Source: a virus. Taken from it: a DNA stretch of 64,000 nucleotides. Made by a program: the position numbers and the translations under genes. Position 1 is the first letter of the stretch. Every line of letters starts with the position of its first letter. Shown in pieces: positions 41,674 through 63,035 of this stretch. The stretch is taken from positions 64,001 through 128,000 of IMG/VR virus record IMGVR_UViG_3300008108_000039; one strand, written 5' to 3'. The notes under the pieces were generated by a model. The model saw nothing but the letters and a program-made list of their open reading frames with translations, was not told the DNA's origin and searched no databases.

Positions 41674-42926
41674 TATTGAAATTTTCCTATTGCTATCACT
41701 TCATCATCTGCTTCTAAAGTATATCCTAATAAATTAGTATCAAATTGAACTCTAACACCAGAACCATCAGCTACGAACGAAGCTACAGATGAGGGTACAT
41801 ATTGTCCATTGATATAAAATATAAAATTATTAATTGTTGTAGCTGGTAACTGTGATGTAGCGGGTGGGTTTAATATTAAAGCTCCAGTAAATAATGCTTG
41901 ATTAGGTACTGTGATAATATCAGCTTTAAGTGGTTTATTTGTATTTAAGTAGGTTAAATCACCAAGAGCCGCAGCATTAATAGTTGTATTATAAACAACA
42001 TTTCCATCACCAATAAATGAAGTGGAACCTACAGTATTATTAGCAGGCATTTGAGCAGCAGGATTAACATTATTAAGATTTTCAACAGTTTCTAAACCAA
42101 ATACAACCTGAGCTTTGGAATAATACATATTAGAGGCAGCTGCTCTTTTATTAATAGTATCTGGTATTAGGTATCCATTTAATGTTAGAGTGAAGTTTGT
42201 TCTTGCTGCCATATCTTCACCTTGTTGCATTATAGTTGTAATAGCAAAGTTATCTATTCTAACTCTAAAATTCCATCGTGAATAATCTCCCCAATATGAA
42301 TCAGAAGCATATTCAATAGCTTCAATTAATTTATTGTTTTGTTCTACAAAGTTTGTAAATAAAACACAATCATAAGTTACGGTTACATAATCAGGTACTA
42401 CAGAAACATAGTATTGTTTTGAAGGTATTCTATTAGTTAAAACAGAAAAATTATCATAAAAGTTTTTAGCATTATATTTAGTTTCAAATACTTGAAATAA
42501 ATGACTTTTATTACCATCTAATTTATTACCTAAATTTCTATCTTTTTCAACATTAGTACGATAATACATGATAAGAGGAGCCATTATCTTTCCAGCAGCA
42601 TCACGATAATATCCATCGTTTTGAACAGCTTTCCATCTTTCAGAACTACCATATAATATAGGTACAGGAACACGAGTATTATTTTGTATTACTGTAGGTT
42701 TAATAACATTACTAAAATAATAGTGTATTGCTTGATCTATATCTGTTAAACTAACAGCCATGTCTTTTACATCATCATTTTTATGTGATATATCTAAAGC
42801 CCTATTTCTAGAAAATACATTTTCCCCATCACCATCTGGTTTGCCCATATTACTTAAATATGGGTCAACAGATGCTTGTGATATTTCAGCAGCTGTACGT
42901 GGTCTTGGTTTTATAGGGCGTGGCAT
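41673..42926 (-). CDS. tail terminator / sheath stabiliser (gp15-like) with C-terminal extension
   Basis: VP..YG..ERW, P.YV.VTY, F.L.L.GYL.P; neck-region position. Confidence 0.7.
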   Translation of the reverse strand: MPRPIKPRPRTAAEISQASVDPYLSNMGKPDGDGENVFSRNRALDISHKNDDVKDMAVSLTDIDQAIHYYFSNVIKPTVIQNNTRVPVPILYGSSERWKAVQNDGYYRDAAGKIMAPLIMYYRTNVEKDRNLGNKLDGNKSHLFQVFETKYNAKNFYDNFSVLTNRIPSKQYYVSVVPDYVTVTYDCVLFTNFVEQNNKLIEAIEYASDSYWGDYSRWNFRVRIDNFAITTIMQQGEDMAARTNFTLTLNGYLIPDTINKRAAASNMYYSKAQVVFGLETVENLNNVNPAAQMPANNTVGSTSFIGDGNVVYNTTINAAALGDLTYLNTNKPLKADIITVPNQALFTGALILNPPATSQLPATTINNFIFYINGQYVPSSVASFVADGSGVRVQFDTNLLGYTLEADDEVIAIGKFQ

Positions 42927-43309
42927 TATATTCTACCTTGTTTTTGTAATGCTAATAATTTATCTAAAGCATTCATAGCTTTAAATAATTGATTATATAA
43001 TTTATTAATTTCTTTAGCTGTATTTTTTATATCAGGATTAGAAGAAAACATAAATACATCAAATTCTCTTTTATTTTGAATTACATCTCTTTTAATTTGA
43101 TCAATTTTAGGTAAACTAATTACTTGAGACGTTGAAGTTTCAGGACGACTAGGATCTGGAGGTAAATTAACTAATATTGATCCTTTTTTTAATAAGTCTT
43201 CATATTCTTCTGGTGTTAAATCAGCTATAGTAATTTCTTTACCTGGTTCTCTATCAGCGTATATCTTTTTTGGTTTCTCTAACTCTAATAAATCTATTAA
43301 TTTTATCAT
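42926..43309 (-). CDS. hypothetical protein with MIKLIDLLE leader
   Basis: 127-aa ORF. Confidence 0.65.
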   Translation of the reverse strand: MIKLIDLLELEKPKKIYADREPGKEITIADLTPEEYEDLLKKGSILVNLPPDPSRPETSTSQVISLPKIDQIKRDVIQNKREFDVFMFSSNPDIKNTAKEINKLYNQLFKAMNALDKLLALQKQGRI

Positions 43310-43311
43310 AA

Positions 43312-43881
43312 TTATAATCTTTCTAAGTTTATACCTAAGGTTTCAACACGAGCATAGTGTGCTGTAACAATAATTGAAATTGATAAACCAAAATTATCAT
43401 TATCAGATGAAAATGAGTATTCTGGTTGTTTACCTACAAAAAGTTGATTTTCTACAACACTATCAACTTCATAATAGTCATTATTCCACACAATAACATC
43501 TCCTACTTCTGGTACTATATTATATGATGTTGATATAGTAGAAGTATACCCTCCAGCTACATATCTTATATTTGTATAGTTAATAGGATCTTCATCATAT
43601 CCTGCTAAATCATCTTTTAAAAATCTACAAGTTATATCTTGATTAACATCAGGACCAAAATTATCTGTAGTCCACTCAGGTGGTGTTCTTTCTATTAAGC
43701 AATTTATTAATACAGGATCATTAAATATTTTAGTACCATTAGCTTCACCATATAAATTATGTTCAGATCTTTCTAAATTTATTTTATAATATCCTACTTG
43801 TTGTTGAATAATGTTGTTTACCAATTCACGATTGATATGTCTAATTAATGAGGCATCACGAGCGGTTCCAAATAAACTCAT
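43312..43881 (-). CDS. neck/head-closure protein (gp14-like)
   Basis: NLYGEA..K.F..PV, FG.D, PEVGD.I.W...YYEV..V. Confidence 0.7.
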   Translation of the reverse strand: MSLFGTARDASLIRHINRELVNNIIQQQVGYYKINLERSEHNLYGEANGTKIFNDPVLINCLIERTPPEWTTDNFGPDVNQDITCRFLKDDLAGYDEDPINYTNIRYVAGGYTSTISTSYNIVPEVGDVIVWNNDYYEVDSVVENQLFVGKQPEYSFSSDNDNFGLSISIIVTAHYARVETLGINLERL

Positions 43882-43885
43882 ATTA

Positions 43886-44224
43886 TTAGTATTGTCCTAC
43901 TTTTTCAATAGTGTTAAAGCGCGGAATAAACTGTAATAAACCTTGTATTTTATTAGCTGATAAAGCATCCATTTTAATTGAGTCAATAGCAGCTTTAGGT
44001 TCTTTTAAAGCAAGATACTTTATTTTAAGTAAAGCATATTGGTGTTTATCAGTACTTTTACTTCTAAGAAAATCATTTTGTTCAACAGTAACTACTACTA
44101 CGTCCTTTAATCCTCTAATTTCATTATAAATAAATACTTGGTTAACATTTTTTGAAGTTTTAATTAATACTTCAATTTTATATAATACAAGAGCTTCTGT
44201 TAATATGTCTATTAATTTAATCAT
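43886..44224 (-). CDS. hypothetical protein with MIKLIDILTE leader
   Basis: 112-aa ORF; EIRGL..V.VV. Confidence 0.65.
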   Translation of the reverse strand: MIKLIDILTEALVLYKIEVLIKTSKNVNQVFIYNEIRGLKDVVVVTVEQNDFLRSKSTDKHQYALLKIKYLALKEPKAAIDSIKMDALSANKIQGLLQFIPRFNTIEKVGQY

Positions 44225-45379
44225 TTAGAAAATATAAATTGGGAGAGGTATATTATTTAGTTGTTTTTGAATATATTCTGTTTCACTAGCTTGATTTTCA
44301 AGTTGTGTTTTACGAGATGTTACATCTAAAGTTGCACGTAATTGTGTTAAAAGATCTTCTTTTTCTTTTCTAGCATCAGTTAATAAATCCTGTTGATTTA
44401 ATGTTACCTCAGCTCCAGGAATAGGTACTGTACCATATTTTCCTCTAACATATGCTAAAGTTTCTTTTATTAAAGCTAAAGCATATTGACGAATCCACTG
44501 TTTACCAATTGAATTAATTTGTAGATAAACTGGATTTTGGTATGGTACATTTGATACATTAGTAACTAAATTAGTTCTACTATCTACTACAGGATTATTT
44601 CTTTCATCTACTAATATATAATGAAACCATAATTTATCATTGTATCCTGGAGTAACTGTTGTAGGTATAGGAAATAATCTTAATTTATTATTTACTAAAT
44701 CAAATGAAAATGCTGATTTTCTAATTTGATCATTAAATTCAATAGCTTGAATTTTCATTACATCAAAGAAAATAGGCATTAATAAAAAGTTAATACCAGG
44801 TGAAAATTGTCCAAACCCAAAGGTTTCAAGTAGTGATTGAATACCAGTACCTGTACCTGCATATGGATCAAAATAACGAACAATTGCAGGAGGAGATTCA
44901 AAAAATACTTTTTTTACTTCAATAGATCCAGTTATACCTGAAGCCGATACAGCTGCTTGTAAATCATAATCTTGTACTCCTGATATTAAGGTACATGAAC
45001 CAGTATATATATTAATTTTTCCACCAGTTCCCGCTTCAGTAGCATATGTTTCTGAGATTCGAATTATGCTACCCATATTAGGTGTTACAACAGCATTATT
45101 TAATGAATTTCCTGTTGTAGTACCTTCTAAATTAAGATAATTTTCGCGAACTTTCCATTGGTATACTTCATTACCATAAGTAGTAACTGCTTCTTCAAAA
45201 GCAGCATAAAATGATCCTGATTGTAATTCAACTTCTACTAAGGGGTATCCTAGACGACTTGCACACCATTGTGCTACTTTATCTGCAGATCCTGAAAATT
45301 CAGTATCTGTATCATAAAATCCAAATGGTGTTTGGCCAGGATTAAATGCTGATGTTCCATTCCAAATTGCTACGTTCAT
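44225..45379 (-). CDS. neck/head-tail adaptor (gp13-like)
   Basis: RLGYP.V.VEL, WIR.YALAL.KE.L..VRGKY..VP.PG..V.LN. Confidence 0.8.
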   Translation of the reverse strand: MNVAIWNGTSAFNPGQTPFGFYDTDTEFSGSADKVAQWCASRLGYPLVEVELQSGSFYAAFEEAVTTYGNEVYQWKVRENYLNLEGTTTGNSLNNAVVTPNMGSIIRISETYATEAGTGGKINIYTGSCTLISGVQDYDLQAAVSASGITGSIEVKKVFFESPPAIVRYFDPYAGTGTGIQSLLETFGFGQFSPGINFLLMPIFFDVMKIQAIEFNDQIRKSAFSFDLVNNKLRLFPIPTTVTPGYNDKLWFHYILVDERNNPVVDSRTNLVTNVSNVPYQNPVYLQINSIGKQWIRQYALALIKETLAYVRGKYGTVPIPGAEVTLNQQDLLTDARKEKEDLLTQLRATLDVTSRKTQLENQASETEYIQKQLNNIPLPIYIF

Positions 45380-45411
45380 TATTAAGTAGTATTTATCACG
45401 TATAAATATAA

Positions 45412-46080: not shown

Positions 46081-46103
46081 ATAACATTATTTGATATAAA
46101 TAT

Positions 46104-46136: not shown

Positions 46137-46173
46137 CTTATTTATAGCCTTACGGGGCTAAGTTATATTAGGA

Positions 46174-47805
46174 TTAGACAGTATCTAAACCGTGTACATA
46201 CACCTTAGCGTAGTAGTCAGGACGAATCATTCTCTTAGCGTAACGAGTCATCAAACCTTTACGTGGAGTGAAGGTATTTGGATCGTAAAGCAATGGAGTC
46301 ATGATTAATGGTACATAAGGAGCAAATACAGCACCACACTCTAAGAACTGATTACCTTTGTAACCCATTAAGATTACGTTCTCAGTCATGTATGGGTTTT
46401 TATAAACCTTGTAGCGGCTGTTTAAGCTACCTACTTTCTGAATACCAAAGTTAAACTCTGATTTTTCACCATCACCATCAGAAGCAAATCCAGGGATTGA
46501 TTCAATGATAGTAGCAATTGTCGGAGAGATACACATAAAGTTTGCACCACCTCTTAAAGTTAATTGGTGAATTCTGTTAGATACTTTTTGTAGTTTAGTA
46601 CCTAAAGTTTGATACCAACCACCTTGTGTATTAAAGAATGCAGAAGCAGCTGATACAAATGAAGTACCATTCCATACAATGTTGTTATTAGCACTCCAGT
46701 AATCAACAGTGAAGGCGTTTTGAATCAACATATCTAATAACTCAAGATCAATTTCCATAGAAATATATTGAGATAAGATACCAGTTAATTCAGCTTCAGC
46801 ATCTACACTATGATAAGCGTTAAGATCCTGAGCAAATTCTGGAGTCCATTGTGCTTTTAACTTACGAGTTCTAGCAACAATAGGCTCAGATTTTAACGAT
46901 ACGTTAATTTCAGGAATATTGATAGGTTGAGCTTGAGAAATCTGACCAGCAGTAGCAGATCCGAATGCATCTTCGAAATCACCACGAGCAGCAGGAGTAG
47001 TAGCTTTGTTATATTGTAATACACCAGAACCACTAGCTTGGTTCATACTAACAAGATCAGCAGTAATGAATACTAATGCGTTGTTAGAACCACTAAGTCT
47101 AGTAAACTGTTGTAACAAGTTAACAGTGTTAATGCTACCAACACCACCAGAACCTGAAACAAAGTTAAATGCTCTAATACCTAAAGTATCAAAAGAGCTA
47201 GAAACTAAATCATAAGCAGATCCAGAAATAACAATTTTTCTTAAGCTACCAGTAGCATAAGTGGTATCAAAGAAAACATCAGCACCAGTTACAGAAGCAG
47301 TAGTAAATAATACTGATTGAGTAGCGATGTTCAATGAGTAACCAAATTTACCAGCACCATATAAAGAACCAGTAGGGTTAGTTACGTTAGTAGTAGGATC
47401 AGCACTGTAAAGAGATTGGTTTAAACCTAAAGGCTGTACGTTTGTACCATATTTGAAATCCAAATAGAATACAAGACCAGAAGGTAAGTTCATAGGTTGA
47501 ACGCTAACGAACTCTTTTGCAGCGATATCACCAAATACACGGCGAACTAAAGGTAAAGCAACACCAGCCCAGTTTTCTGAGTTGTAACCACCACCAAGTT
47601 GTGAGTTGGTACCACCAGTTTGGCTAGCTTCTGTAACTAATTGTTTAGCTTGGTTTTCAAGCAAGGTAGCCATGACATTCTTGTCATTTTCACCTTTTAA
47701 TCCTTCTAACAAACCAGATTTGGTCCATTTAGAGGATAATTTTTTAGCGTCATCCATTACAACTTTGTATTGGTTTGAGCTTTCTAATAATTGTTGAATG
47801 TTCAT
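46174..47805 (-). CDS. major capsid protein (T4 gp23-like)
   Basis: LLENQ, PLVRR, VQPM..P.GL.F, A.TRKLKA.WT.E.AQDL.A.H..DAEAEL, APY.PL, F.P..G..TRY. Confidence 0.96.
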   Translation of the reverse strand: MNIQQLLESSNQYKVVMDDAKKLSSKWTKSGLLEGLKGENDKNVMATLLENQAKQLVTEASQTGGTNSQLGGGYNSENWAGVALPLVRRVFGDIAAKEFVSVQPMNLPSGLVFYLDFKYGTNVQPLGLNQSLYSADPTTNVTNPTGSLYGAGKFGYSLNIATQSVLFTTASVTGADVFFDTTYATGSLRKIVISGSAYDLVSSSFDTLGIRAFNFVSGSGGVGSINTVNLLQQFTRLSGSNNALVFITADLVSMNQASGSGVLQYNKATTPAARGDFEDAFGSATAGQISQAQPINIPEINVSLKSEPIVARTRKLKAQWTPEFAQDLNAYHSVDAEAELTGILSQYISMEIDLELLDMLIQNAFTVDYWSANNNIVWNGTSFVSAASAFFNTQGGWYQTLGTKLQKVSNRIHQLTLRGGANFMCISPTIATIIESIPGFASDGDGEKSEFNFGIQKVGSLNSRYKVYKNPYMTENVILMGYKGNQFLECGAVFAPYVPLIMTPLLYDPNTFTPRKGLMTRYAKRMIRPDYYAKVYVHGLDTV

Positions 47806-47835: not shown

Positions 47836-48993
47836 TTATTTAATAATGTTTGCAAGTTTTTGCATACGAGTAATAACATCATTTGATTCAACTATTGTTG
47901 CCTTAGGAGCAACACCAGCAGCTTTAGAAGCAAATCCTAATGATTCTTTAATTTGAGTTTTCTTAGCACCAAAATTAGATTTTTCAATAGATTCAAATAA
48001 TTCTTTAGCTTGAGCCGGAGTAGTTGCTTTATCAAACGAAGCAATTACTTTTAATTTTTGTGATTCATTTAAATTTTTAGCTTTGAAGATTTTGTTAACA
48101 TAAAGCAACTTAGCATTTAATAAGTTTACTTCATTTAACTCATTACGAAGAGCATTGATAGTATCGATTGCTTCTTTCATTTCGTCTTTTTCTTCTTTTT
48201 CTTTTTTGTCTTTTTTCTTAGCTTCGTACATATCATCTTTATCATCGTCGTCAGCTTCGTCTAAAGCATCTAATTCAGCTAATAATTCTTCTAAATCAAC
48301 TTCTTCTTCATCACTTACACCTACTTCTTCACCAGCATCTCCCATATCTACACTCATTTCTTCTTCACCACCGCCCATTTCTAGTTCATCACCAGGAACT
48401 CCTAGTTCATCACCAGCATTAGCATCTAGTTCAGCAGAAATAACATCTTTGATAAGGTCTTTTAACTGATCAACTGTAAGGTCAGTAATTTTTTCATCTT
48501 CAGCTTCAACTTCTTCCTCGTCATCAGATTCTTCATCTTCTTCAGATTCTTCATCTTCATCTTCGGATTCGTCTTTAGCTTCTTTTACTTCTTTTTTTTC
48601 TTCGTCTTCATCTTTTTTCTTTTTAGCTTCGTCTAATGAATCTTCTTCATCTAATTCAGCTAAAATAGCAGATAAATCGAAATCTTCTTCAAGATCTTCA
48701 TCGCCTTCTCTTTTCATCATACCATTTACATCACCTTCTCCTGGATTTCCTTGTTCAACACTACCAAATCCTGTGTTTTGTTGTTCATCAGATGTATCGT
48801 AAGGTTGCATATAATCAATCTCTTCGATATCATCTTCTTCTAATTCCATTTCTTGCAATTTTGCAGAAATCATGGATTGTAGTTTTGGTGATAAGGCTTC
48901 TTCAAGAGCAGCTTTGGCATTTGCAAGAGCAGCTTCGCGTACTTGTTTAGCATCAGCGATGGCTTCTTTGAACAAATCTTTGTTTGTACTCAT
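47836..48993 (-). CDS. prohead scaffolding/core protein (gp22-like)
   Basis: Highly acidic coiled coil between protease and capsid genes; ends RMQKLANIIK; preceded by AAGGAG. Confidence 0.8.
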   Translation of the reverse strand: MSTNKDLFKEAIADAKQVREAALANAKAALEEALSPKLQSMISAKLQEMELEEDDIEEIDYMQPYDTSDEQQNTGFGSVEQGNPGEGDVNGMMKREGDEDLEEDFDLSAILAELDEEDSLDEAKKKKDEDEEKKEVKEAKDESEDEDEESEEDEESDDEEEVEAEDEKITDLTVDQLKDLIKDVISAELDANAGDELGVPGDELEMGGGEEEMSVDMGDAGEEVGVSDEEEVDLEELLAELDALDEADDDDKDDMYEAKKKDKKEKEEKDEMKEAIDTINALRNELNEVNLLNAKLLYVNKIFKAKNLNESQKLKVIASFDKATTPAQAKELFESIEKSNFGAKKTQIKESLGFASKAAGVAPKATIVESNDVITRMQKLANIIK

Positions 48994-49144: not shown

Positions 49145-49759
49145 TTAACATAGAGGACATACCCCTGTACTTGTGCAAATAATTTCTGTAATTAAACTAT
49201 TAACTTTACTATAATCTTTGACAGTTTGTATTTGTTTTCCCTCAGCTAATTTCATATATGCTTGAGGTGTTGAAGGAACACTAACAAGATCCCAACAAAG
49301 TAATTCAAAATCGTCTTGTACTTCAACAGTTTCGCCTAATTGTTTAACACTTCCCATACCACGTGATGAAATACCAAGAGGAATGTTAGACATTACTAAT
49401 GCTTTAGCTATGTTACCTGATGGTGTAGGTAATAGTTGTAGTTTACCCATTAGATCATTACCCTTCCACCATACTTCTGTTACAATATGTGAAGCATTAG
49501 ATAAATTTACAACAGATGATTCAGGGTGATCAAGTTCTCCTAAAGCAGTACGTGTTTTAACAGGACCCTCTACATATTTTTTAACTTCTCTTTCAAGAAT
49601 TTCACGAGGATACACACGACCATTACCATTCTTTTGTTCTGCTTCTTGTAATTTACCAACAAGGGTAACAAGAGATTTACCTTCACCTAGTTGCTTATTT
49701 TCAGCAATAGTAAATTTAGCACTATAAAATGGGGTATGATCTATTAATAAGGATTTCAT
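49145..49759 (-). CDS. prohead protease (gp21-like)
   Basis: N.NGRVYP...L, ALGELDHP, SH, GISSRG.GS, D.V..PS...A. Confidence 0.93.
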   Translation of the reverse strand: MKSLLIDHTPFYSAKFTIAENKQLGEGKSLVTLVGKLQEAEQKNGNGRVYPREILEREVKKYVEGPVKTRTALGELDHPESSVVNLSNASHIVTEVWWKGNDLMGKLQLLPTPSGNIAKALVMSNIPLGISSRGMGSVKQLGETVEVQDDFELLCWDLVSVPSTPQAYMKLAEGKQIQTVKDYSKVNSLITEIICTSTGVCPLC

Positions 49760-49760
49760 A

Positions 49761-50711
49761 TTATTTATTTTCAGCATCTATATTATCACGTCCATCATAA
49801 TATTCATTTATTGCTTCATGAACCATTTCTTCAAGTTGTTTTTTAAATTTTTCAAATGAAGCACCTAAATTAACACCAGGACGAAATTCTTTTGGTTTTT
49901 CAACTTTTTTATCATCTTTTTTATCAGAAGATGGTTGAGGATTTGTTTCTTCTTTATTTTCCTTTATTTTCTTTTTTTCAACTTTAACTTTTTTCATTCC
50001 TCTAGCCTTATCAACAGCATTTTTTTCAGTATAAAATTTCATTTGGTGATCTTCAGGTTTTGAAGAATCCATTGTTTGCATTTCATTTCCTGGTGTACCT
50101 GTTAATTTATAAATTGTATAATAAAATGAATCTTTTTTAAGATTTTTCATTACTATTTTAACAATTTCATCATATGATTTTTCAGGATGGCATTCATGTT
50201 CAATAGTAATACCATCTACTAATTCGTTAAAATTAACATTGGCTTTTTCATCAAATTGACCGTATTCTGTTTTTCCGTTAATATTTACAGATTTATTTAT
50301 TGATTCACTAATTCCACCTTCAAAATCATCAAATTTAGTATATTTACCACTTTCTTCTTCTTCACCTTTTTTAATCATATTATTAAATTCATCATCATTT
50401 TCAGGAAATATTTCAGAAGCAATAGCAATAGCTTCAGCTTGAGATAATCCCATTTCATCTTCTAAAGCAGCAACCGCACTAATATAGTCCCCCATTTGTT
50501 TAGCTAATTCTTCAGCAGTAGCACGCATTGCTTCTTCAGGCCCCATTGACTCAACTAAAATTCCTTTGTTTTTAAGAATTTTTATAGAATCATCAAATGA
50601 TGTTACATTAGTAACATATTGAGGAAAAGTCATGCGAATATTTCTCATAAAATTCGCTTGGGATATTTTACCTTCTTTTAAATCGCGGTATTGGTTTGCT
50701 ATACTTTTCAT
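49761..50711 (-). CDS. hypothetical head-associated protein
   Basis: G..IE.E.H....KNLKKD..YY; several (I/L)xE sites. Confidence 0.6.
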   Translation of the reverse strand: MKSIANQYRDLKEGKISQANFMRNIRMTFPQYVTNVTSFDDSIKILKNKGILVESMGPEEAMRATAEELAKQMGDYISAVAALEDEMGLSQAEAIAIASEIFPENDDEFNNMIKKGEEEESGKYTKFDDFEGGISESINKSVNINGKTEYGQFDEKANVNFNELVDGITIEHECHPEKSYDEIVKIVMKNLKKDSFYYTIYKLTGTPGNEMQTMDSSKPEDHQMKFYTEKNAVDKARGMKKVKVEKKKIKENKEETNPQPSSDKKDDKKVEKPKEFRPGVNLGASFEKFKKQLEEMVHEAINEYYDGRDNIDAENK

Positions 50712-50717: not shown

Positions 50718-50846
50718 TTATTTTCCTTGTCCTCTATAATTTTTTTCAGTTCGGTCGTGTTTATTATAAGATTTTTGTGCTTTTCCTCTTTTACGTTTAC
50801 CAAAAGATATTTTTTGGCTACTTCCTGCAGATTTAGATTTTGCCAT
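50718..50846 (-). CDS. small basic protein (42 aa) ending KNYRGQGK, not in ORF track
   Basis: Translated by hand: MAKSKSAGSSQKISFGKRKRGKAQKSYNKHDRTEKNYRGQGK; ATG overlaps the upstream stop (TAATG). Confidence 0.75.
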   Translation of the reverse strand: MAKSKSAGSSQKISFGKRKRGKAQKSYNKHDRTEKNYRGQGK

Positions 50847-51388
50847 TATTGTTTAAGATTATTTACTTTATTATTTAAATGATTTACCATCTCTGCTATT
50901 TGAGTAACTGCTTTTTCTGTTCTTCCCCAATATTTTACACCATCTCCTTCACTTAATTCTTGCTTCATGCGTTGGGTATAATCAACAATACGATCAATTT
51001 CATTTAATTTACGCTTTACTTCACGCATTGCTTTATGAAGTTGTTCAGCTTTAGTTCTGTATTTAACTTCATTTTTAAATTGTTTATATGTTGCTTCGTT
51101 TAGCAATTCTTGCTTAATAATATCTTGAATATTCATATGTTCTTTATATAGTTTGTAAGTTGGTTTTTTACCAAAAAATGATTTATAGTCGTATACTTTA
51201 GAATCACTTGGCATCCCTTTAGGTACTCTTTTCATTCCTTCACCTTCAGAAGCTTTTGTAGCAGCGTTTGTTTTTTGTCCTTTTTTAGAGAACGCGTATG
51301 GAGTAGAATAACCAGGCACATTGGCTGTTGTAGATTCTTCATCTAACAATTCGCGAACAATTTGCTTTATATATTCTTTAATGTTCAC
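50846..51388 (-). CDS. hypothetical head-associated protein
   Basis: IKQIVRELLDEE leader, GYSTPYAF, C-terminal coiled coil. Confidence 0.65.
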   Translation of the reverse strand: MNIKEYIKQIVRELLDEESTTANVPGYSTPYAFSKKGQKTNAATKASEGEGMKRVPKGMPSDSKVYDYKSFFGKKPTYKLYKEHMNIQDIIKQELLNEATYKQFKNEVKYRTKAEQLHKAMREVKRKLNEIDRIVDYTQRMKQELSEGDGVKYWGRTEKAVTQIAEMVNHLNNKVNNLKQ

Positions 51389-52287: not shown

Positions 52288-54171
52288 CTATAGTCCTTTA
52301 ATATTATTTTCATTAAGTAGTGATGGTTCTTGATCAGGTCCAAATACAATTTCTTTTCTCATTTCTTTAGGTATAGAACCTAATGAATTTTTTATTTTAT
52401 AAGATTCAGCTATTGCTATTGGTGACCCACCTTTTGGTGTTCCTTCACCAGTTTCATTAGGAGTGGATAAAGTATTATTACCAATTCTACCAGTTCTATC
52501 TTTACCTAATGGATCTTCTTGTGTATTAATAATAGATGCTTTTTCTTGAGGACGACCAATTGGACGTTTTTCATCATATCCACCAGGTACTTCTCCATTT
52601 TGTCCCATTCTACCTTTACCATATAATGATGCTAAATCGTGTGGTGTACCATATGATTTACCTGTTCTAGCAGGATCATTACCCTCATTTTCAATTTGAC
52701 CTAATCTAAAGGCACGCATTTTATCTTGAATTACTAAATCACGGTATTCATCGTATTGATCTTCACTAAATTGGAATACATTATCATATATCCAATCTGA
52801 TGGGAGTAAATTTGTATCTTGAATATTTTTTGCTAAATCAACCTTTTCTTTCCATAATGCTACTTTTTCTTGTTCAAATATAATTGAAGAATTAGTTAAT
52901 TGTAATTCAAAATTAGTTAAAGAAGCACCATCATATCCTTGAACATATAAATGCACTAAAGCAATTTTATATAATTCAGATAACATAATGCGTTGAATGC
53001 GTTCAACGGTACGAGCAAAGCGAATATCTTCAGCAGCTAATGTAGCTTTACCTTCAAGATCTTTTTCAAATCCAAAAAATGCTTTAGGTACTTTTAATGC
53101 TGCTAACATTTCATCACGTAAAAAGTTAACATCATCTATAGCTTGATATTCTAATCCTTTTAATGTATCAATTTTAGTTGTACTATCATTACCACGAGTA
53201 GGTAAATAATAATCCTCCATCATATTCATTAGGTTATACTTTAAATTGTATTCACCTGTTTGATTATCTACATAAGGAGTTTTTTTCATTTTTTGCATTA
53301 ACTTCTGCATATACCCATCAACTTCATTAGCGGGTATATTACCTACATTAACTGTAAATACACGTTTTTCTGGGGCGCGTACAATACGATGCAATAACAT
53401 TGCATCTTTCATTAGTACATATTGTTTATATGTTTTACGAGCAGGTTCAATATATGATCTACCATAAGGTAAATAATTAGCATCTGTTATTAATCTAAAG
53501 TGAGCTATTTCATAATTTTCAAATGTAATTCTACCTTCTCTATCTGCTAAACGTGTACTTACACCACCAGATGCTATTACTGATGGGTTAATTTTAAATG
53601 TTACTGAAGAAGGGTTATTAGGATCTTGACCTTCTTCACGTACCATATCATAAACGGATAATGGTGTTACACTATATACTCCAAATTTTTCTGCAATTTC
53701 TAAATGTAAATAAAAATCTCCATATTTACACATATTGCGAGTCCAAACCCAAAGATTAAATTCAATATTTAAAATATCATAAAATAAATTGTATAATATT
53801 CGTTGTATATTTTCATCTGAACTTTTAATTTGTAATACTTCTCCTACTTCATTTTTTAAAGTAGATTCATCTGCTATAATATCTAAAGTAGAAGCAATAA
53901 TTGACTCAGTATCCATAGCTTCATAATCAGTATATAACTGAAGACGAAGTGTTTGATAATTCATTGTAGGATTATATGGCATATTAGCGCCATAACGATG
54001 TAATTTAGTAAATCTATCAATTAAAGCATTTGTTTTAACATTGCCATAAGATTGAATGTTGTCTACATCTACAGTTTTTAATTGTTTACCTCCAACATTT
54101 CTTATAATAACATCTGTGTTAAATAAGCGAGATAATCTATCAAATAAACCGCTATTATTTTGTTCGGCCAT
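52288..54171 (-). CDS. portal protein (gp20-like)
   Basis: YG.S.IE.AR, DA.L..RI.RAPE.RVF...VGN.P, EDY.LP.RG, I.TL.G, ALKVPK, EDIRFAR...R.Q. Confidence 0.95.
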   Translation of the reverse strand: MAEQNNSGLFDRLSRLFNTDVIIRNVGGKQLKTVDVDNIQSYGNVKTNALIDRFTKLHRYGANMPYNPTMNYQTLRLQLYTDYEAMDTESIIASTLDIIADESTLKNEVGEVLQIKSSDENIQRILYNLFYDILNIEFNLWVWTRNMCKYGDFYLHLEIAEKFGVYSVTPLSVYDMVREEGQDPNNPSSVTFKINPSVIASGGVSTRLADREGRITFENYEIAHFRLITDANYLPYGRSYIEPARKTYKQYVLMKDAMLLHRIVRAPEKRVFTVNVGNIPANEVDGYMQKLMQKMKKTPYVDNQTGEYNLKYNLMNMMEDYYLPTRGNDSTTKIDTLKGLEYQAIDDVNFLRDEMLAALKVPKAFFGFEKDLEGKATLAAEDIRFARTVERIQRIMLSELYKIALVHLYVQGYDGASLTNFELQLTNSSIIFEQEKVALWKEKVDLAKNIQDTNLLPSDWIYDNVFQFSEDQYDEYRDLVIQDKMRAFRLGQIENEGNDPARTGKSYGTPHDLASLYGKGRMGQNGEVPGGYDEKRPIGRPQEKASIINTQEDPLGKDRTGRIGNNTLSTPNETGEGTPKGGSPIAIAESYKIKNSLGSIPKEMRKEIVFGPDQEPSLLNENNIKGL

Positions 54172-54203: not shown

Positions 54204-55790
54204 TTATCCTATTACCCATGTTAAATCTTCAATGTTGCCATTTCCTAAATCCATTTTATAAGGATTGTTAAAATTTGTAGGACCCGGCATTATTACTGCT
54301 GAAGTTTTAGTTATATTATTTATATTTTGACGAGTCATATTCATTCCTTGTTCATAAAATTTCATTGCTGTATCACGAGTAAATAATCCTATTCCTAATG
54401 ACATTACTAAATCATCGTTATATCCATTTTGTGCTTGTGGTTTACCATTCATCCAAATAAATACTCTTAATTCTTCTAATAATCGTTTTGAGTGAAAAAT
54501 AAATTGTCTGTCTCTAATATACGCTTCTGTTTTGGAGACAACAAGAGGTCTTGTTTTAGCGGACATAGTAAAGCCAGGAACTGTTTGCTCAGAATCCATT
54601 TTAGCCATCCATTTATCTATATGCATTTCTCCATAGACACGAGGTGAATAATATAAATTAGGATATTGTTTTTCTATAATAGTGTTTATAACATCCCATC
54701 CTACACTTGCATTTTCAACTACAAGTAAAGCATTATTATATTCAGTAGCAACAGATACCAACATATTTCCATAAGTACGAGTATCAACTTGTGATTTATA
54801 TTCAGCAACTTGTTCACACGTTGTTGCATCAATAATATGAAACGCTGAATAGTCCGAACCATCACCGCGAGCCACGTCAGCGCAAACCAAATACTGCTTA
54901 TTATAATCAGGATACTGCCAAATCCAAAAATCGCCACCCATAAAACGACGTTCAATAGGATCTTGTATAAATGTTTGTTCATAAAAAGATAATGTGTCTG
55001 ATTCAATAACAGAATTTCCAGAACCTAAAAAGTCACAGTCATACTCTTGAGCAAATTCTCGAGGAGACATGTTTGATCTTTCTGTTTTTTCCCATTCTTC
55101 ATCTCTATCAGGATGTAAATTCCAAGGCAATCTAATTGCTTTAAAACCTTTACCTTCACCAGTTCCTGATTCAGCAGATGTATACATTTTATGAAACCAA
55201 TTACCAATTCCATTAGGAGAAGATAATGCAATAATTCCTCCCCCTGTTGCAATTGTAGGTTTAATACTTGTATAAATTTTATCAATTCCTTCAATAAAAG
55301 CAGCCTCATCTACTAATAGTAAAGATACAGCATAGGATCTACCTGCATCTGATGCTGCTGATGTTGCAATTATTTGAGAATTATTAGCTAACTTTAAAGA
55401 TAATTTATTATCTGATAATGGTTTTTCTTTACCTTTTAACCAAGAAGGTAAATTATTGTACATAAATTGTACTTTATCTACCATCCCTTTAGCTGTTTCT
55501 TGTTTTGTTGCAATACAAAGTATAGTTTTATCTTTATTAAACAACATTGTCCATAAAGAAAATCCTGCAACTAAAGTAGATATACCTAATTGGCGTGATT
55601 TATTAATAATAGAAAAACGATTATTTCTAAAATCATTTAATACTTCTTCCTGGAATGGGTATAAATGGAATAATATTCTTCCTTTTTGAGGGTGTGAAAT
55701 GTAGCAATATTTGCGAAAGAAATGAACAGGATCCATGGCGCATTTGATATATTCCTGTTTGATTATTTCTTTAATATTAGTTTGTGTCAT
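54204..55790 (-). CDS. terminase large subunit (gp17-like)
   Basis: LYPFQ, KSRQLGIST, LLVDEAAF, S.PNG..NWF, QEY.C.F, DVARG.G.DYS, DDLVM. Confidence 0.95.
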   Translation of the reverse strand: MTQTNIKEIIKQEYIKCAMDPVHFFRKYCYISHPQKGRILFHLYPFQEEVLNDFRNNRFSIINKSRQLGISTLVAGFSLWTMLFNKDKTILCIATKQETAKGMVDKVQFMYNNLPSWLKGKEKPLSDNKLSLKLANNSQIIATSAASDAGRSYAVSLLLVDEAAFIEGIDKIYTSIKPTIATGGGIIALSSPNGIGNWFHKMYTSAESGTGEGKGFKAIRLPWNLHPDRDEEWEKTERSNMSPREFAQEYDCDFLGSGNSVIESDTLSFYEQTFIQDPIERRFMGGDFWIWQYPDYNKQYLVCADVARGDGSDYSAFHIIDATTCEQVAEYKSQVDTRTYGNMLVSVATEYNNALLVVENASVGWDVINTIIEKQYPNLYYSPRVYGEMHIDKWMAKMDSEQTVPGFTMSAKTRPLVVSKTEAYIRDRQFIFHSKRLLEELRVFIWMNGKPQAQNGYNDDLVMSLGIGLFTRDTAMKFYEQGMNMTRQNINNITKTSAVIMPGPTNFNNPYKMDLGNGNIEDLTWVIG

Positions 55791-56475: not shown

Positions 56476-57438
56476 TTATTTTATAATACCGGCATAGTAT
56501 TGTAATTTATTTAATGTCCATTCATCTAAAGGTTCTTCTGTTTCTTCTTCAGGAGCAGCAGTTGGTGGTTCTGGTATTTCAACACCTGCTAATTTTTTAA
56601 CATAATCACTACTAGCAACCAAGCTATTAATACGTTGTTCTAATGATGTTCTTAAAGCACGTAAACGCTGTAATTCTTCAGACGGTTTGTCTTTAATGTC
56701 ACCTGCAGTGGCTTTTGATCTTTTTAATTTTAAAATATTAGATTTAGTAGCATTTAAACGGCGTTCTAATTCTCTATATTGTGTAGCTGCTTTATAATCT
56801 TCATTAGATGCCTTTGAAGAAATAGGTTCTACTTTTTCAAGTTCATCTTCACCAGGTTCAACAAGATCCTCAGAACCATCAGCATTTGGTTCACCATCAA
56901 AATACATTGCTAATGGATTTTCTGTACTACCCATAAACATATCTTCAGGTTCAGTAGCCTGACTAGGTGCTTCTTCACCAGGTTCTGGTATAGCTTCTAC
57001 TTCACCACCTGCTCCTAATCTTACTACTACTCCAGCATCTAATAATCCATTTATAACAGCATTAGCTATTTGTGGGCGAACAAAATTAAATTGTGTTTGA
57101 ATATCCTTTTTCTCAGCCCCAGGATTTTCACGAATATAATTAATAATATCAGCTAATGATACTCCACTAATACGTTTATTAGTATAAGGTTCAGTATTAA
57201 TATTATTATCAGTTAGTCTATATCCTTTAGCTGTGCGAGCCATTTCTTCAATTTCTCCTTCAGCAACTTCTGCTCTACCAGAAGATATATCGTTTTTCTT
57301 AGATTGAAGTGCTTTTATTCTAGCATCTATTGCTTTTTTTTCAGCATCTTCAGCTGCTTTTTCAATAGAAGATTCTGATTCTAATAATACTTCTTTTATA
57401 GCTTCGCGTATAATTTTACGTAATTCTTTACTTTTCAT
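56476..57438 (-). CDS. acidic hypothetical protein, probable internal head protein (probable start MKSKELRK)
   Basis: LRKIIREAIKEVLLE leader; ends KLQYYAGIIK. Confidence 0.65.
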   Translation of the reverse strand: MKSKELRKIIREAIKEVLLESESSIEKAAEDAEKKAIDARIKALQSKKNDISSGRAEVAEGEIEEMARTAKGYRLTDNNINTEPYTNKRISGVSLADIINYIRENPGAEKKDIQTQFNFVRPQIANAVINGLLDAGVVVRLGAGGEVEAIPEPGEEAPSQATEPEDMFMGSTENPLAMYFDGEPNADGSEDLVEPGEDELEKVEPISSKASNEDYKAATQYRELERRLNATKSNILKLKRSKATAGDIKDKPSEELQRLRALRTSLEQRINSLVASSDYVKKLAGVEIPEPPTAAPEEETEEPLDEWTLNKLQYYAGIIK

Positions 57439-57472
57439 TTTATTGTCATTCAAATTGTTCATCATATAAATA

Positions 57473-58525: not shown

Positions 58526-59830
58526 TTATATTTTCTTTAAAATACTTTCAGCTACATATATGGCTTGAGCACCGCTAACTGTTATTCCCCTTGCTGACAA
58601 TGCATCACCTACAAAGTGTACATTTGGATAAGTTGTTAATGATAAATCTTGATAGTTAACTAGTGGTTCTGGTGATAGATATTTTACCTCAGGAATATAC
58701 ATTCCCCAATCATCACCAAATTCAAATACTTTATTCATTTGGTCGATGAAATCAATAATATATTGTGCATATTCACCAAATGCTTCTTTAAAAATATCTA
58801 ATGTATCTATTTGATAAGCTTCAACATTTATTCCTTCAGAAGTTTTACTTACTCCTCTACGTCTTTTAGGAGAATAATATATTCCTCTACCTTCTATTGT
58901 GTTGAATTTTTGTACTACATCTCTACTCCATTCAAATGGATTATCAATACCTTTAATTTCCATTAGGATACCAAAGTTAGTCATATCGTTTCTAAATTCT
59001 TCACCTTTTTTCGCATGGCCATTGTACGTAATATCCCCATAAGTTTCCTCCACGGCCACGTAAGCGGCATTGTTATTAGTACAAAAACTACGTAAAGAAA
59101 CATTATCGAATTTTTGATAGAGTTTAAAATCATAACTAACATCAATTAATTTTTGAAAATATTTTTGTGGTGCTTCAAATCGAACACCAATTTGTACTGA
59201 TTTAGGTTCATTAGGTAATTTATAGTCATCTGCTAGTTTTTGAGCGAAATCAATACCTGATTTACCTACTGCGAATATTAGGGTATCATATGATATACCA
59301 TTAATGCTGTATTTTTCGTCTTCTGTATGTACAATATTATTATCAAATAATATGTTTATTACTTCCGTTTCCCATAAAAATTTAACACCTTTATCAACTA
59401 AATAATCATACCAACGTTTTCCTATTTCATGTAAATAATCTGTACCAATATGGTATACTGGGAATAAACGTAGTCCAAAGTGAGGTTTGATGAAGTCTGG
59501 TTCTGCTTGTGGGTTTGAATACATTATCTTAGATGGATCAGGGTGAAAGCGTTTCCACATTTCAATAGATTGATCCATTAGATCATATGCCTTTTCTTCA
59601 CCACAATACTTTGATAATTGACCACCAATTGATGTATGGTATGTAAGTTTGCCATCTGAGAAGCCTCCAGCTCCTGCAAATCCGGTCATTACTTCTTCTG
59701 GTTTGCGAACATAAGGATCATTACCTTTATCTATAATGGTAATTAACTCACCAGGATAGCCATTGTCTACTAATTTGGTTGCAGCATTTATACCTGCAAC
59801 TCCTGCTCCTACAATTACAATTTTTTTCAT
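58526..59830 (-). CDS. FAD-dependent oxidoreductase (uncharacterised FAD dehydrogenase family; probable start MKKIVIVG)
   Basis: GAGVAG Rossmann motif, G.GGFSDGKL, HIGTD, IGVRFE, RSFC, NGH, PEVKY, FVGD...RG. Confidence 0.85.
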   Translation of the reverse strand: MKKIVIVGAGVAGINAATKLVDNGYPGELITIIDKGNDPYVRKPEEVMTGFAGAGGFSDGKLTYHTSIGGQLSKYCGEEKAYDLMDQSIEMWKRFHPDPSKIMYSNPQAEPDFIKPHFGLRLFPVYHIGTDYLHEIGKRWYDYLVDKGVKFLWETEVINILFDNNIVHTEDEKYSINGISYDTLIFAVGKSGIDFAQKLADDYKLPNEPKSVQIGVRFEAPQKYFQKLIDVSYDFKLYQKFDNVSLRSFCTNNNAAYVAVEETYGDITYNGHAKKGEEFRNDMTNFGILMEIKGIDNPFEWSRDVVQKFNTIEGRGIYYSPKRRRGVSKTSEGINVEAYQIDTLDIFKEAFGEYAQYIIDFIDQMNKVFEFGDDWGMYIPEVKYLSPEPLVNYQDLSLTTYPNVHFVGDALSARGITVSGAQAIYVAESILKKI

Positions 59831-59836
59831 ATTATA

Positions 59837-59868
59837 TAAAAATAATTTAATTTTTTTGATTTTCCAAA
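59837..59868 (-). promoter_or_regulatory. Bacteroidota-type promoter
   Basis: TTTG-N20-TATTTTTA ending 6 nt before the ATG. Confidence 0.5.
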
Positions 59869-59874
59869 TATAAG

Positions 59875-59899
59875 GTGGCCCACCTTTTGGGTGGGCCAC
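59875..59899 (-). terminator. GC-rich hairpin, probable terminator
   Basis: GTGGCCCACC-caaaa-GGTGGGCCAC followed by CTTATATTT. Confidence 0.7.
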
Positions 59900-59959
59900 T
59901 ACTCCAATTTATTTTTTAGGCGAACAGGCAATGAATCTGTTCTATATGTTTATTTCATA

Positions 59960-60553
59960 TTAATCTCCAGTATATTTTGCTCCACTTGGAACATCATATC
60001 CACCACCAGGACCAAAACGACTTTGCCATGCTTGTTTATCAATTTCTTTTTCTTTTGGAGTTCTTTTATCTGCAGGAAATTCTTTTGTAGGTTCTAATTT
60101 AATTGTATTTCCATCAATTAATATATCTGCAATTGGATCTTTTAAATCTAAATAATCAATTGTAGTATTTTCGTCTTTTAAAGTAATAGTACCAGACATT
60201 GTATTAATTTTCTGAATAGGTTTACCTTGTACAGTTACTGTTTGTCCTGCTTTTAAAGCAGCATCTACTTTTCTCATTACTTGAGTATCATTTATTTCGT
60301 TTATAACTGATTTAGTTGAAATACCAGCTAATTGTTGCATTCTTTTAATTTCATCCATTGTTTGTTGATTTTTAATAATACTGTCGTATTGATTCATTGT
60401 TAATGTTTTTCCAGTTTTACTTAACTCTAAAATATTTTCAGCTACTGTATGTAAATCCATATCAGTTTTTGCATCTTCACGAGCATATTCTAGTAAACGA
60501 ATAAATAAAGGTACGTCTACTGTAATTTTATCTGTAGGGTTAAATTGTATCAT
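59960..60553 (-). CDS. hypothetical protein with internal RMQQLAGI motif
   Basis: DVPLFIRLLEYAREDA; EIKRMQQLAGI. Confidence 0.65.
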   Translation of the reverse strand: MIQFNPTDKITVDVPLFIRLLEYAREDAKTDMDLHTVAENILELSKTGKTLTMNQYDSIIKNQQTMDEIKRMQQLAGISTKSVINEINDTQVMRKVDAALKAGQTVTVQGKPIQKINTMSGTITLKDENTTIDYLDLKDPIADILIDGNTIKLEPTKEFPADKRTPKEKEIDKQAWQSRFGPGGGYDVPSGAKYTGD

Positions 60554-61035
60554 TGGTTGTTTTCAATAAATATCCACTTAGGTGTATTTCCTAATTTTTT
60601 CCAATTTAATCCTTTAATAGCAATTTTATCTTTTACATAAAAATTACGATATGCTTTAATAGTATCACCCATTTTATATTCATCAGGCATACATTGTGGT
60701 GGAGGTATAAATTCTTTATTGGGAAGATTGGGTTCATTGTCACGAAGCCATGTAAGAACTTCTTGAGTTTTATGAGGTTTACCATAACGTTTAGTAAATT
60801 CTTTACAAATTTCTAAACCATGTTGTACAAGCCAGCGGTAATGTTGTATAGATTCACGTACCCATTTAGTAGATGGGTGATTAACGTGAGCACGCTTATA
60901 AGGTGCTTGTGAACCTGATTCCCAATGTGCTGTTGAGCACATTTGAGCGGATTCAATTTGCATTTTACGAATATGATCGTCTGCTAGTTGTTGGGCGGCT
61001 GATATTGGGTCAGCGCAAATATAAAATATATTCAT
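60550..61035 (-). CDS. pyrimidine-dimer DNA glycosylase / endonuclease V-like protein
   Basis: MNIF....P...A....D.H..KM..E.AQM.STAH, H.NHP...W.R, EF..RYGK.H, AYR.FY. Confidence 0.75.
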   Translation of the reverse strand: MNIFYICADPISAAQQLADDHIRKMQIESAQMCSTAHWESGSQAPYKRAHVNHPSTKWVRESIQHYRWLVQHGLEICKEFTKRYGKPHKTQEVLTWLRDNEPNLPNKEFIPPPQCMPDEYKMGDTIKAYRNFYVKDKIAIKGLNWKKLGNTPKWIFIENNQ

Positions 61036-61073
61036 ACAATAAATGTATGAAGATTACTTTGCCTTTTTAAATA

Positions 61074-61712
61074 TTATAACACATTATACTCATTATTACC
61101 AATTTTTAAATTAGTAATTGTATTTAAATTTACTATTCTATAAGCACGTTTTGGGATATCAAATACAGGAATTAATCCTTTAGCAGCCGCATCATAAGGT
61201 AATTCACCACCTTTAAGATATGCTTTAACACCTAAACGAGCATTCATTACACGTGTTGTACCATCTTTTTTAATAAAAGTTACTGTAAAAAATTTACCTT
61301 TGGTATCTCTAATTAATTGCTCTGCTTGTTCTTTATTAATAGAACCAGGAGGAGTTTCAGGAGTTGGTGCTTCTTCTGGAGTTGGTTCATCTGATGTTTC
61401 TTGAGGGACTTCTTCATCTTGTTCATTAACAATTCCTGCTAATTTTTGTAAACGTTTAGCCTCAGGAACTAATTGTTCAAAGTCATCATTTATATCTAAA
61501 TAAAAGGTATCTTTAACACCTTTAGAATTGGATAAATGTAATTCAACATCATTTCCAAAAGGAAGTATATCATCAACACTAACTTTTTCACCTTCTTTAA
61601 AATTACCTATATCCCCAGATAATGTAAATGTTTCTCCTACTGTAAGAGAAGTAGCTTTTACTTCATTTAGATATTGTTTTATTTTTTGAATTCCATTAAA
61701 AATTTTTTTCAT
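61074..61712 (-). CDS. multi-module protein with C-terminal SH3/WYL-like beta-barrel
   Basis: KRLQKLAGI motif, PE-rich linker, FFTVTFIKKDG..R.M.ARL...VFD.....YR. Confidence 0.6.
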   Translation of the reverse strand: MKKIFNGIQKIKQYLNEVKATSLTVGETFTLSGDIGNFKEGEKVSVDDILPFGNDVELHLSNSKGVKDTFYLDINDDFEQLVPEAKRLQKLAGIVNEQDEEVPQETSDEPTPEEAPTPETPPGSINKEQAEQLIRDTKGKFFTVTFIKKDGTTRVMNARLGVKAYLKGGELPYDAAAKGLIPVFDIPKRAYRIVNLNTITNLKIGNNEYNVL

Positions 61713-61721
61713 ACATTTATG

Positions 61722-62264
61722 TTATATTTGTGGAACTTCTTCTTCAGGAGATGGAACTTCAGGGGATGGTATTTCAGGAGCTGCTGTTTCAGGTGATGGT
61801 GGTTCGGAAGCTGATGATATATCTGCTGCTAATTCTGCGTTTTTAGTAGGAGATGATGCTCCTTTTGATGATTGTTGAATTTCTTCTTTAGGAGCATAAT
61901 TTAATTCTAATAAATTAACTATAGCTTGAGAAGCCCTTTCAGATTCTCCTACATTGTCAGGATGATATTTTTTACCAGCTATTTTAGCTGTGTAATTACC
62001 ACTACCAGCATAATAAATTGTAAAATCTTGACCATTAATAAGATCAATTTTAAATGTAGTTGGTTTTGGTGCTATAACACTAACACTTGATATATAACGA
62101 CCAAATGAAGGAGACATTAATTCTTCTATAGTTTTTTTCAATCCGGGAAAACGATATATTAGATACATTGCTTTAGTAGCTTTCTTTTCTTTAGCTTCTT
62201 GTTCAGCTAAAGCTTTACGAACTGCTACTTTAATGTATTTTTCTAATAATAATTTTTTATTCAT
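61722..62264 (-). CDS. hypothetical protein with Pro/Glu-rich tail
   Basis: [12 protein letters not shown] leader; APKPTTF.I.L.NGQ.F. Confidence 0.65.
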
Positions 62265-62541
62265 TTTTTTTCAATTCAGATACTAAAGTCTCAATAAATG
62301 GTTTAAAAAGACGAGTGCCATAATCTTTTTTAAGAATATTAGCTACGGCAATAGCAAAATCTTCATATGATGTATCTTCAGCAATATCTATTGATACTTC
62401 TTCTTTTAAATTTTTAGCTATTGCTTTGCGACGTGCAGAAAGATATTTATCTGTTTTGTTAGTTTTTCCATCATTATTAATATCAGCATCTTCTTGACCT
62501 ACTGAATCAAGTTTTTCTAATATGTCAACAAGTTTAATCAT
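62257..62541 (-). CDS. hypothetical protein with MIKLVDILE leader and EF-hand/dockerin-like loop
   Basis: [14 protein letters not shown]. Confidence 0.65.
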
Positions 62542-62546
62542 TGCTA

Positions 62547-63035
62547 TTATTTTTTAACTGCTGGTTTCTTTTTGCTGTCTTCAGCTTTCGGTGTAATTTC
62601 CTCTTTGTCTTCAGCTTTAGGTTCGTCTTTTTTAGTAGGAGCTTTTTTACCGTCTTTTTTAGTAGGAGCTTTTTTATCTTTCTTAGCTTTTTCGATAAGA
62701 CCCATCATTTCTTTGATCTTTTCAGTTTCAGAAGCTACTTTACCTTCTACTTCAGAGATTTGACCATCAAGCATTTCAGCTAATTTACTATGAGCAGTTT
62801 TAATTTTTTCTAATTCGTTTACGAATTTTTGCATATGAGCATATTCGGCTACAAATCCTGACTGTTCGCCACCTTCAGTAATTTGATATTGACCTAAAGA
62901 TTCTCTCATACTTTTTAAACTTTTTAATTCTTTTTTAAGGTGTACTAACTTTCCACCACTTTTAGGTAATCCACCTTTTTCCATTGCTTCTGCAAGTACT
63001 TGGCGAATAACTTTACGCACTTCTGTAATATTCAT
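62547..63035 (-). CDS. hypothetical coiled-coil protein with Lys-rich tail
   Basis: [11 protein letters not shown] leader; KKAPTKKD occurs twice. Confidence 0.65.

Follow-up and report, generated by a model that had tools for sequence, protein, structure and literature searches.

Portable peptides shared by the head scaffold and many unrelated proteins: candidate prohead-addressing tags in a clade of T4-like phages

Introduction

In bacteriophage T4, a ten-residue capsid-targeting sequence (CTS) is sufficient to package foreign proteins, and the internal proteins of the T-even phages vary behind CTS-like leaders (PMC9026906, PMC3012670). The CTS of IPI-III and Alt is removed by the gp21 protease, as is the ten-residue propeptide of gp24 (Mullaney and Black, 1996; reviewed in PMC9026906); the part cut from gp24 is precisely residues 1-10 (PMC9546572), and L/I-x-Glu is the sequence after which gp21 cleaves (PMC9026906). 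Here we describe three short peptides, tail A, leader B and leader C, that recur on otherwise unrelated proteins in a 64,000-nt stretch of viral DNA (the window: bases 64001-128000 of the 167,479-bp IMG/VR contig IMGVR_UViG_3300008108_000039). Tail A is also the C-terminal end of the phage's own head scaffold. Judging from the sequence, we put the probability at roughly 0.65 that these tags load proteins into the empty head and that the head protease then trims them off.

The herpesvirus scaffold and its protease-scaffold fusion have a common C-terminal capsid-binding tail that is released at the M-site, and encapsulins use cargo-loading peptides, short terminal addresses that bring diverse cargo inside an HK97-fold shell. 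In phage 80alpha, the last 16 residues of the scaffold form a helix and a hook on the N-arm of the capsid protein, for which a copy in the SaPI1 protein CpmB competes (PMC5644958).

Results

Three kinds of tag around a T4-type head module

The phage is a freshwater, T4-like virus, and its head genes are a distant T4-type module. The window has a G+C content of about 30% and carries nearly all of its genes on the minus strand; all features listed are on that strand, and coordinates are window positions unless labelled genome (Table 1). The phage's capsid protein shares 57% identity with that of Flavobacterium phage vB_FspM_immuto (immuto; MW353175, a cultured phage of Flavobacterium sp. LMO8), 48% with that of Microcystis phage Mel-JY01 and 38% with that of Rhodothermus phage RM378; weaker matches extend to thousands of T4-like phages. 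The head genes run in the order terminase, portal, three small genes, protease, acidic scaffold and capsid protein, and the T4 head set is complete (gp20 portal, gp21 (S77) protease, acidic scaffold, gp23 capsid protein). The C-terminal part of the scaffold resembles immuto and Mel-JY01 proteins that occupy the same gene position, and its N-terminus resembles both the gp22 N-terminus and the CTS of T4 (T4 starts read from NC_000866).

Tail A has the core RMQKLAGII, leader B reads MIKLIDLLxE, and leader C (for example ..ELRKLIREE..) is an amphipathic helix of about 20 residues ending in hydrophobic-x-Glu. All of the peptides quoted in the original prediction, which had proposed them as portable capsid addresses, lie where it had placed them on the minus strand. 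The scaffold-end peptide recurs in three to four other window proteins. Leader B is found on three open reading frames (ORFs) of the window and on two beyond it (genome 131590 and 131974), and leader C on four in the window and two beyond (genome 128103 and 159641); a further tag variant lies outside the window at genome 133602. The gene carrying it (genome 133602-135071) encodes a 489-residue protein like nicotinamide mononucleotide (NMN) adenylyltransferase, and this fourth variant, M-N-L-G-x-Y-I-x-x-I-I-L-E-E, is kept in relatives, with the first strand of the nucleotide-binding fold following immediately.

When the tags were counted over the whole genome (219 ORFs of at least 60 residues) and compared with residue shuffles, tail A matched three to four ORFs against 0 in 300 shuffles, leader B five against a shuffle mean of 0.0005, and leader C five against 0.03-0.07. 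All but one of the 14 tagged ORFs lie within 29 kb around the head module (P = 6e-11). These patterns were built from their own matches, and the real proof is their replication in immuto and in IMG/VR loci.

Selection acts on the tags at the peptide level and not on their DNA. Tagged genes have unrelated upstream DNA, and tag copies differ from one another in their synonymous codons, and thus it is the peptide that is conserved; in 90 non-redundant copies of leader B, codons are used at the background frequencies of the genes that carry them. In a genome of about 30% G+C, with leaders rich in Ile, Lys and Leu, the resemblance could in principle involve no targeting and stem from AT-rich codon bias, selection on translation initiation, or recombination that copies the 5' ends of genes. 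We regard this as very improbable, given the almost complete lack of matches in shuffles, the background usage at synonymous sites beneath unrelated upstream DNA, the occurrence of tail A at C-termini and inside proteins, and exact conservation over at least 66 families and down to 42% capsid identity. A DNA-level repeat or shared promoter is ruled out by the same two observations, unrelated upstream DNA and background codon use. A T4-type late promoter (TATAAATA) showed no coding-strand enrichment and no link to the tagged genes, and is uninformative on timing.

Tail A is the conserved end of the scaffold

Searching related genomes for the motifs showed that the tags recur both in immuto and in IMG/VR loci (relatives' loci are denoted L plus a number). 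The immuto scaffold ends in ..RWQKLAGIIK, two small immuto ORFs (25061-25456 and 111675-112139) start with a 22-residue leader containing the tail A core, one (24569-24994) starts with exact leader B and one (81525-81944) with leader C. Scanning IMG/VR with degenerate DNA for the nine-residue core of A in its exact form gave at least 120 loci, where roughly one match would be expected by chance (a rough estimate). Among the matches listed, the 9-mer lies in the last 9-12 residues of an ORF in 100 cases, in an N-terminal leader in 19 and internally in 1. About 80 of these 100 C-terminal ORFs are full-length acidic proteins of 285-498 residues, the rest being cut by contig ends or shorter; of the 100 loci, 95 match the C-terminal part of this phage's scaffold, and in 94 there is also a gp23-type capsid gene, encoding a protein with 42-65% identity to the one here. 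No other part of the scaffold, which is encoded next to the capsid gene, is as conserved as tail A at its extreme C-terminus, and the exact 9-mer is retained though the capsid proteins of the same loci have diverged this far. More distant scaffolds end in tails of the same type (..MKKLAGIVK in Mel-JY01, ..IKRLAGL in RM378). In the 19 N-terminal leaders listed, the core lies at residues 7-12 of unrelated proteins of 94-357 residues, and an alignment of 18 non-redundant passengers with three window proteins has only the leader columns in common.

The P22 scaffold had been offered as the precedent for such a tail, but the helix and hook of the 80alpha scaffold and CpmB fit better (PMC5644958). 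In 80alpha an amphipathic helix of about 16 residues carries an -IIK hook, a layout that the sequence of the tail here fits, and in both systems the tail is also found on a second, non-scaffold protein. The 80alpha scaffold ends in ..QKRIIKN and the tail here in ..QKLAGIIK, so that layout and IIK hook are alike, with no further similarity. Unlike the tail A system, CpmB is a size-redirecting scaffold of a satellite and not cargo, and it has neither a protease-site boundary nor an N-terminal version. Herpesviruses offer a second likeness, in that a second protein enters the procapsid by virtue of a common C-terminal tail, just upstream of which the protease cuts; unlike their nested translation of one gene, separate genes carry the tail here, and it is used N-terminally as well. 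With encapsulins the analogy is one of mechanism only. Unlike an encapsulin, this is a DNA-packaging gp23 head with portal and terminase, a removable peptide and a different motif, and neither a portal-less shell nor a Gly-Ser-Leu-type motif is found.

Tail A could bind its partner in at least two ways. First, cargo could dock on the inner face of the capsid protein through its copy of the scaffold tail, in an encapsulin-like manner, with the tags marking the whole injected set of the clade; we consider this possible, though doubtful. Second, the tags could address the head while tail A docks on the scaffold core, the portal or the protease and not on the capsid inner face or N-arm. For T4, the target of the CTS is taken to be the core made of gp22, with which the internal proteins co-purify (PMC9026906); the sequence evidence here points to no particular partner. 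Since the tail shows the helix-plus-IIK-hook layout of 80alpha, we think this second arrangement unlikely.

Leaders B and C start dozens of unrelated families

The corresponding IMG/VR scan for leader B also gave at least 120 loci. Nearly all of the matches listed have few or no in-frame start codons upstream and are therefore read as ORF starts, and 103 of the 120 loci listed share other genes with this phage. Leader B starts at least 66 unrelated families, in whose alignment only positions 1-8 and 10 are common. At least a couple of hundred uncultured relatives carry the tag system. In one of them (L210, 662-8296), five leader B genes lie within 8 kb upstream of the terminase; this cargo island corresponds by synteny to window 56-63 kb plus the 7 kb that follow the window end. 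The leader C pattern, in about 2,000 ORFs of IMG/VR loci, has a tenfold higher density within the first 40 residues than in the remainder and starts almost always at residue 4-8.

Leader B shares its length and register with the T4 leaders: MKTYQEFIAE in IPII and IPIII, MELITELFDE in Alt and MAKINELLRE in gp24 (gp22 has a shorter helix ending ..LIAE), all with an acidic residue at position 6, hydrophobic residues at 7-8 and Glu at 10. Because of this common length and register, and because the T4 CTS packages foreign proteins, leader B is best read as the CTS of this clade.

The tags also replace one another on the same passenger. In this phage, L213 and L210, the passenger of ORF 62257 has leader B; in L011 and L175 it has leader A. 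A basic, Cys-containing family has B, C or intermediate helices; each ends in L-x-E, and the conserved domain follows without a gap. 5'-Nucleotidase and NMN-adenylyltransferase-like enzymes are tagged in some phages and untagged in others, including this one, and the untagged versions start at the catalytic core. The portability originally proposed thus holds: the tags are the sole common element of dozens of unrelated proteins, and are interchangeable on one passenger.

Clade-wide, recognizable leader B passengers include zeta-toxin/AAA_33 kinases (4), ART-PolyVal (2) and Acb1-like (2) proteins, and single proteins with HD, 2H-ligase, alpha/beta-hydrolase and methyltransferase domains. Several of these, among them the ART-PolyVal, Acb1-like and zeta-type kinase domains, are of kinds that typify effectors injected by phages (PMC5512222). 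The likeness to these polyvalent effectors extends to ART-PolyVal, zeta-type kinase and phosphoesterases among the passengers; unlike their giant multidomain chains, the proteins here are separate, small and individually tagged. Pfam searches with the A-leader passengers and PADLOC searches with the B passengers were nearly empty.

The passengers also include 5'-nucleotidase, NMN-adenylyltransferase-like and P-loop kinase enzymes, and many of the tagged genes are not part of the head module in the strict sense. Both facts would suit tags that serve as helices for docking or oligomerisation in some cytoplasmic assembly, for example a complex of nucleotide-precursor enzymes or a replication factory, with the scaffold resembling them through a shared non-capsid hub. 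Such an assembly gives the invariant boundary Glu no role, and it sits poorly with a tail A at the extreme scaffold C-terminus behind a fixed Glu site, with leader C on a conserved head-module gene and with leader B in the T4 CTS register. We judge it rather improbable.

A Glu site marks the tag boundary

That the tags end in hydrophobic-x-Glu holds nearly always. In all 19 N-terminal A leaders listed, x-Glu follows directly after ..GII; a hydrophobic-x-Glu lies upstream of the motif in 97 of 98 scaffold tails, exactly six residues before it in 78. Glu occupies position 10 in seven of eight B leaders from loci that had been retrieved with A and are hence unbiased for B. The T4 gp23 cleavage site, FLTE|A, aligns with LVTE|A in the capsid protein of this phage and with V-x-E clade-wide.

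Tagged proteins of the window

Table 1. Head genes and tag sites in the window, with ORFs named by their lower coordinate.
Feature	Position	Strand	Basis
Terminase	54204-55790	-	Gene order
Portal	52288-54171	-	Pfam Portal_T4, 2e-65
Prohead protease, T4 gp21 family	49145..49777	-	Pfam Peptidase_S77, E = 1.6e-34
Acidic head scaffold, 385 residues, directly upstream of capsid gene	47836..48993	-	Between gp21-type protease and gp23-type capsid genes
Scaffold N-terminal helix with I-A-D/E site	48925..48993	-	Kept in ~70 clade scaffolds
Scaffold tail A, last 19 residues: hydrophobic-x-Glu site, then RMQKLA(N/G)IIK helix-and-hook	47839..47895	-	Sequence
Major capsid protein, gp23 family	46174..47805	-	Pfam Gp23, E = 4e-74
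Predicted capsid protein maturation site	47614-47646	-	Alignment with T4 gp23 site
Leader B on ORF 42926-43309, 127 residues	43277..43309	-	L166 orthologue keeps exact clade leader
Leader-B-like start of ORF 43886-44224, 112 residues, neck/structural module	44195..44224	-	Sequence
Leader B on ORF 62257-62541, 94 residues, EF-hand/dockerin-like loop	62515..62541	-	Sequence
Leader C on ORF 50846-51388, 180 residues, conserved head-module gene between portal and protease	51338..51388	-	Orthologues
Leader C on ORF 56476-57465	57379..57438	-	Sequence; homologues
C-terminal tail A of ORF 56476: L-D-E site, then ...YYAGIIK	56479..56529	-	Sequence
Internal A-type site of ORF 56476: ..KKLAGV.., then I-P-E	56569..56604	-	Aligns with C-terminal tail of homologues
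Internal A joint of ORF 59960-60553, 197 residues, flanking x-Glu sites	60296..60358	-	Sequence; L213 orthologue
Internal A joint of ORF 61074-61712, 212 residues: V-P-E, motif, V-N-E	61422..61469	-	Sequence
Leader C on ORF 61722-62264, 180 residues	62202..62264	-	Orthologues with varied C-type leaders
Leader C on ORF 62547-63035, 162 residues	62988..63035	-	Sequence; genome pattern count
Possible diverged A-type site, ..KEMMGLIE, in ORF 62547	62691..62723	-	Weak match to A

Pfam and PHROGs gave almost no annotation for the tagged proteins of the window. ORF 43886 has a leader-B-like start, but it is continuous with conserved structural-module sequence and its removal is doubtful; in L166, the start of the orthologue (68% identical) is another helix of this type, which likewise runs into conserved sequence. 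The candidate fifth A site, in ORF 62547, may be a diverged tail A: it is kept in two orthologues (37-58% identical), but its match to A is weak.

Among the leader C proteins, ORF 50846 has orthologues in Mel-JY01 and in many loci of the clade that carry the leader in an unchanged position. ORF 56476-57465 probably starts at the ATG at 57438 (Met10), which would set its leader in the usual clade register. Its middle looks, from the sequence, like a winged-helix domain, and its homologues (L016, L018, L062) have leader C at the N-terminus and tail A at the C-terminus.

The internal A sites are joints of fused modules, and both joints in ORFs 59960 and 61074 have hydrophobic-x-Glu sites on each side. 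In L213, the ORF 59960 orthologue has 79 residues and tail A at its end; the site is internal here because the gene is an L213-type protein fused to a further domain. An AlphaFold2 (AF2) model of ORF 59960 built with 8 homologues places a confident three-helix module at residues 10-60, and the linker that follows is of low confidence, as is the short helix that it contains at the tail A motif; Foldseek against the PDB returned no fold match for this model. In ORF 61074, the joint is followed by an acidic, Pro-rich linker and a WYL_2/SH3-like domain that stands alone in L140 with a leader-C-type start. A single-sequence AF2 model of this protein (mean predicted local distance difference test (pLDDT) score 45) hints at a helix at the motif.

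Several further observations concern these genes and their neighbours. The three-helix module (65 residues, 18 invariant; window 60359-60553, residues 1-65 of ORF 59960) recurs in at least eight proteins that otherwise differ, whether at their beginning, in the middle or at the end (L213, L062, L016, L028, L033, L218, L205, L168; AF2 pLDDT 83-90). The loop of ORF 62257-62541 reads Asp-x-Asn-x-Asp-Gly, with a weak match to Pfam Dockerin_1 and matches to PHROGs 3326 and 4359, and this passenger also occurs within far longer proteins of relatives. ORF 60550-61035 (minus strand), among the tagged genes, encodes a DenV-like pyrimidine-dimer DNA glycosylase (Pfam Pyr_excise, 1e-7); T4 denV adjoins ipII and ipIII. 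A 108-residue ORF (41347-41673, minus strand) duplicates the C-terminal ~100 residues of the 417-residue protein encoded just upstream (41673-42926, minus strand); the two have a common C-terminus of about 15 residues, and the pair looks like a duplicated fibre or baseplate tip module. In Mel-JY01, a gene annotated as ribosomal protein S21 lies inside the head module (L248, 3185-3412).

Discussion

Taken together, the portability of the tags, their exchange on one passenger, the S77 protease, the aligned gp23 site and the CTS register make head loading followed by trimming the best reading. The tags would be prohead-addressing propeptides of a T4-type head. Tail A would be the coat- or core-docking helix-and-hook of the scaffold, and accessory proteins that have gained a copy of it, or a CTS-like leader B or C, would co-assemble with the scaffold core within the growing shell. 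On closure of the shell, the gp21-family protease would cut after the Glu of the hydrophobic-x-Glu at the tag boundary, freeing the passenger inside the head, and the tag peptide would leave with the scaffold fragments; internal A sites would serve as joints at which fused modules can be cleaved apart. Loading into the prohead, the cut after Glu, the docking partner and delivery into the host by ejection are what we infer from the sequence.

Several points weigh against loading and trimming. The passengers are evenly acidic and basic, and about half are acidic, unlike the basic internal proteins of T4; the nucleotide enzymes and P-loop kinases among them are cytoplasmic in other phages. Hydrophobic-x-Glu is common in Glu-rich proteins, and in scaffolds it occurs at a background of 0.62 per 14-residue window. 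Pattern searches of Mel-JY01 and RM378, which have the scaffold tail, found no leader B, and one of Mel-JY01, with a pattern that does not cover CGN-coded Arg, found no second Lys/Arg-LAG site. Co-variation between scaffold tail and cargo copies is not demonstrable, the core being almost invariant, and the AF2 models of ORFs 59960 and 61074 are weak. A literature search for virion proteomics of immuto or Mel-JY01 found none.

The system is the T4 capsid-targeting principle in a new form. It shares with T4 the head genes, one leader on unrelated, fast-changing passengers, and an ADP-ribosyltransferase as cargo. It differs in having three tag classes instead of one, of which one copies the C-terminal tail of the scaffold, in using tags also at C-termini and internal joints, and in its many passengers that are acidic or enzymes. 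The T4 CTS is known from experiment, the system here from sequence. Literature searches with the motif strings returned no relevant paper on these tags, and we found no description of the same peptide serving as removable N-terminal leader and as internal joint.

If the tags do load the head, they provide a label, readable from sequence, for proteins that are packaged and probably injected, and this label would hold for a large clade of T4-like phages from freshwater and the sea, almost all of them uncultured. Besides the Acb1-like, ADP-ribosyltransferase and zeta-kinase passengers, it would single out dozens of effector families that are so far unknown. The tags would also be natural, interchangeable means of putting foreign proteins into phage heads. 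If docking on the capsid inner face were true as well, the tagged proteins would form a catalogue of the largely unknown early effectors, anti-defence enzymes included, of an abundant aquatic clade. Finally, head loading would join the T4 capsid-targeting sequence with the coat-docking tail of scaffolds, which have so far been treated apart, and would suggest that a targeting signal can arise from a copied scaffold end.

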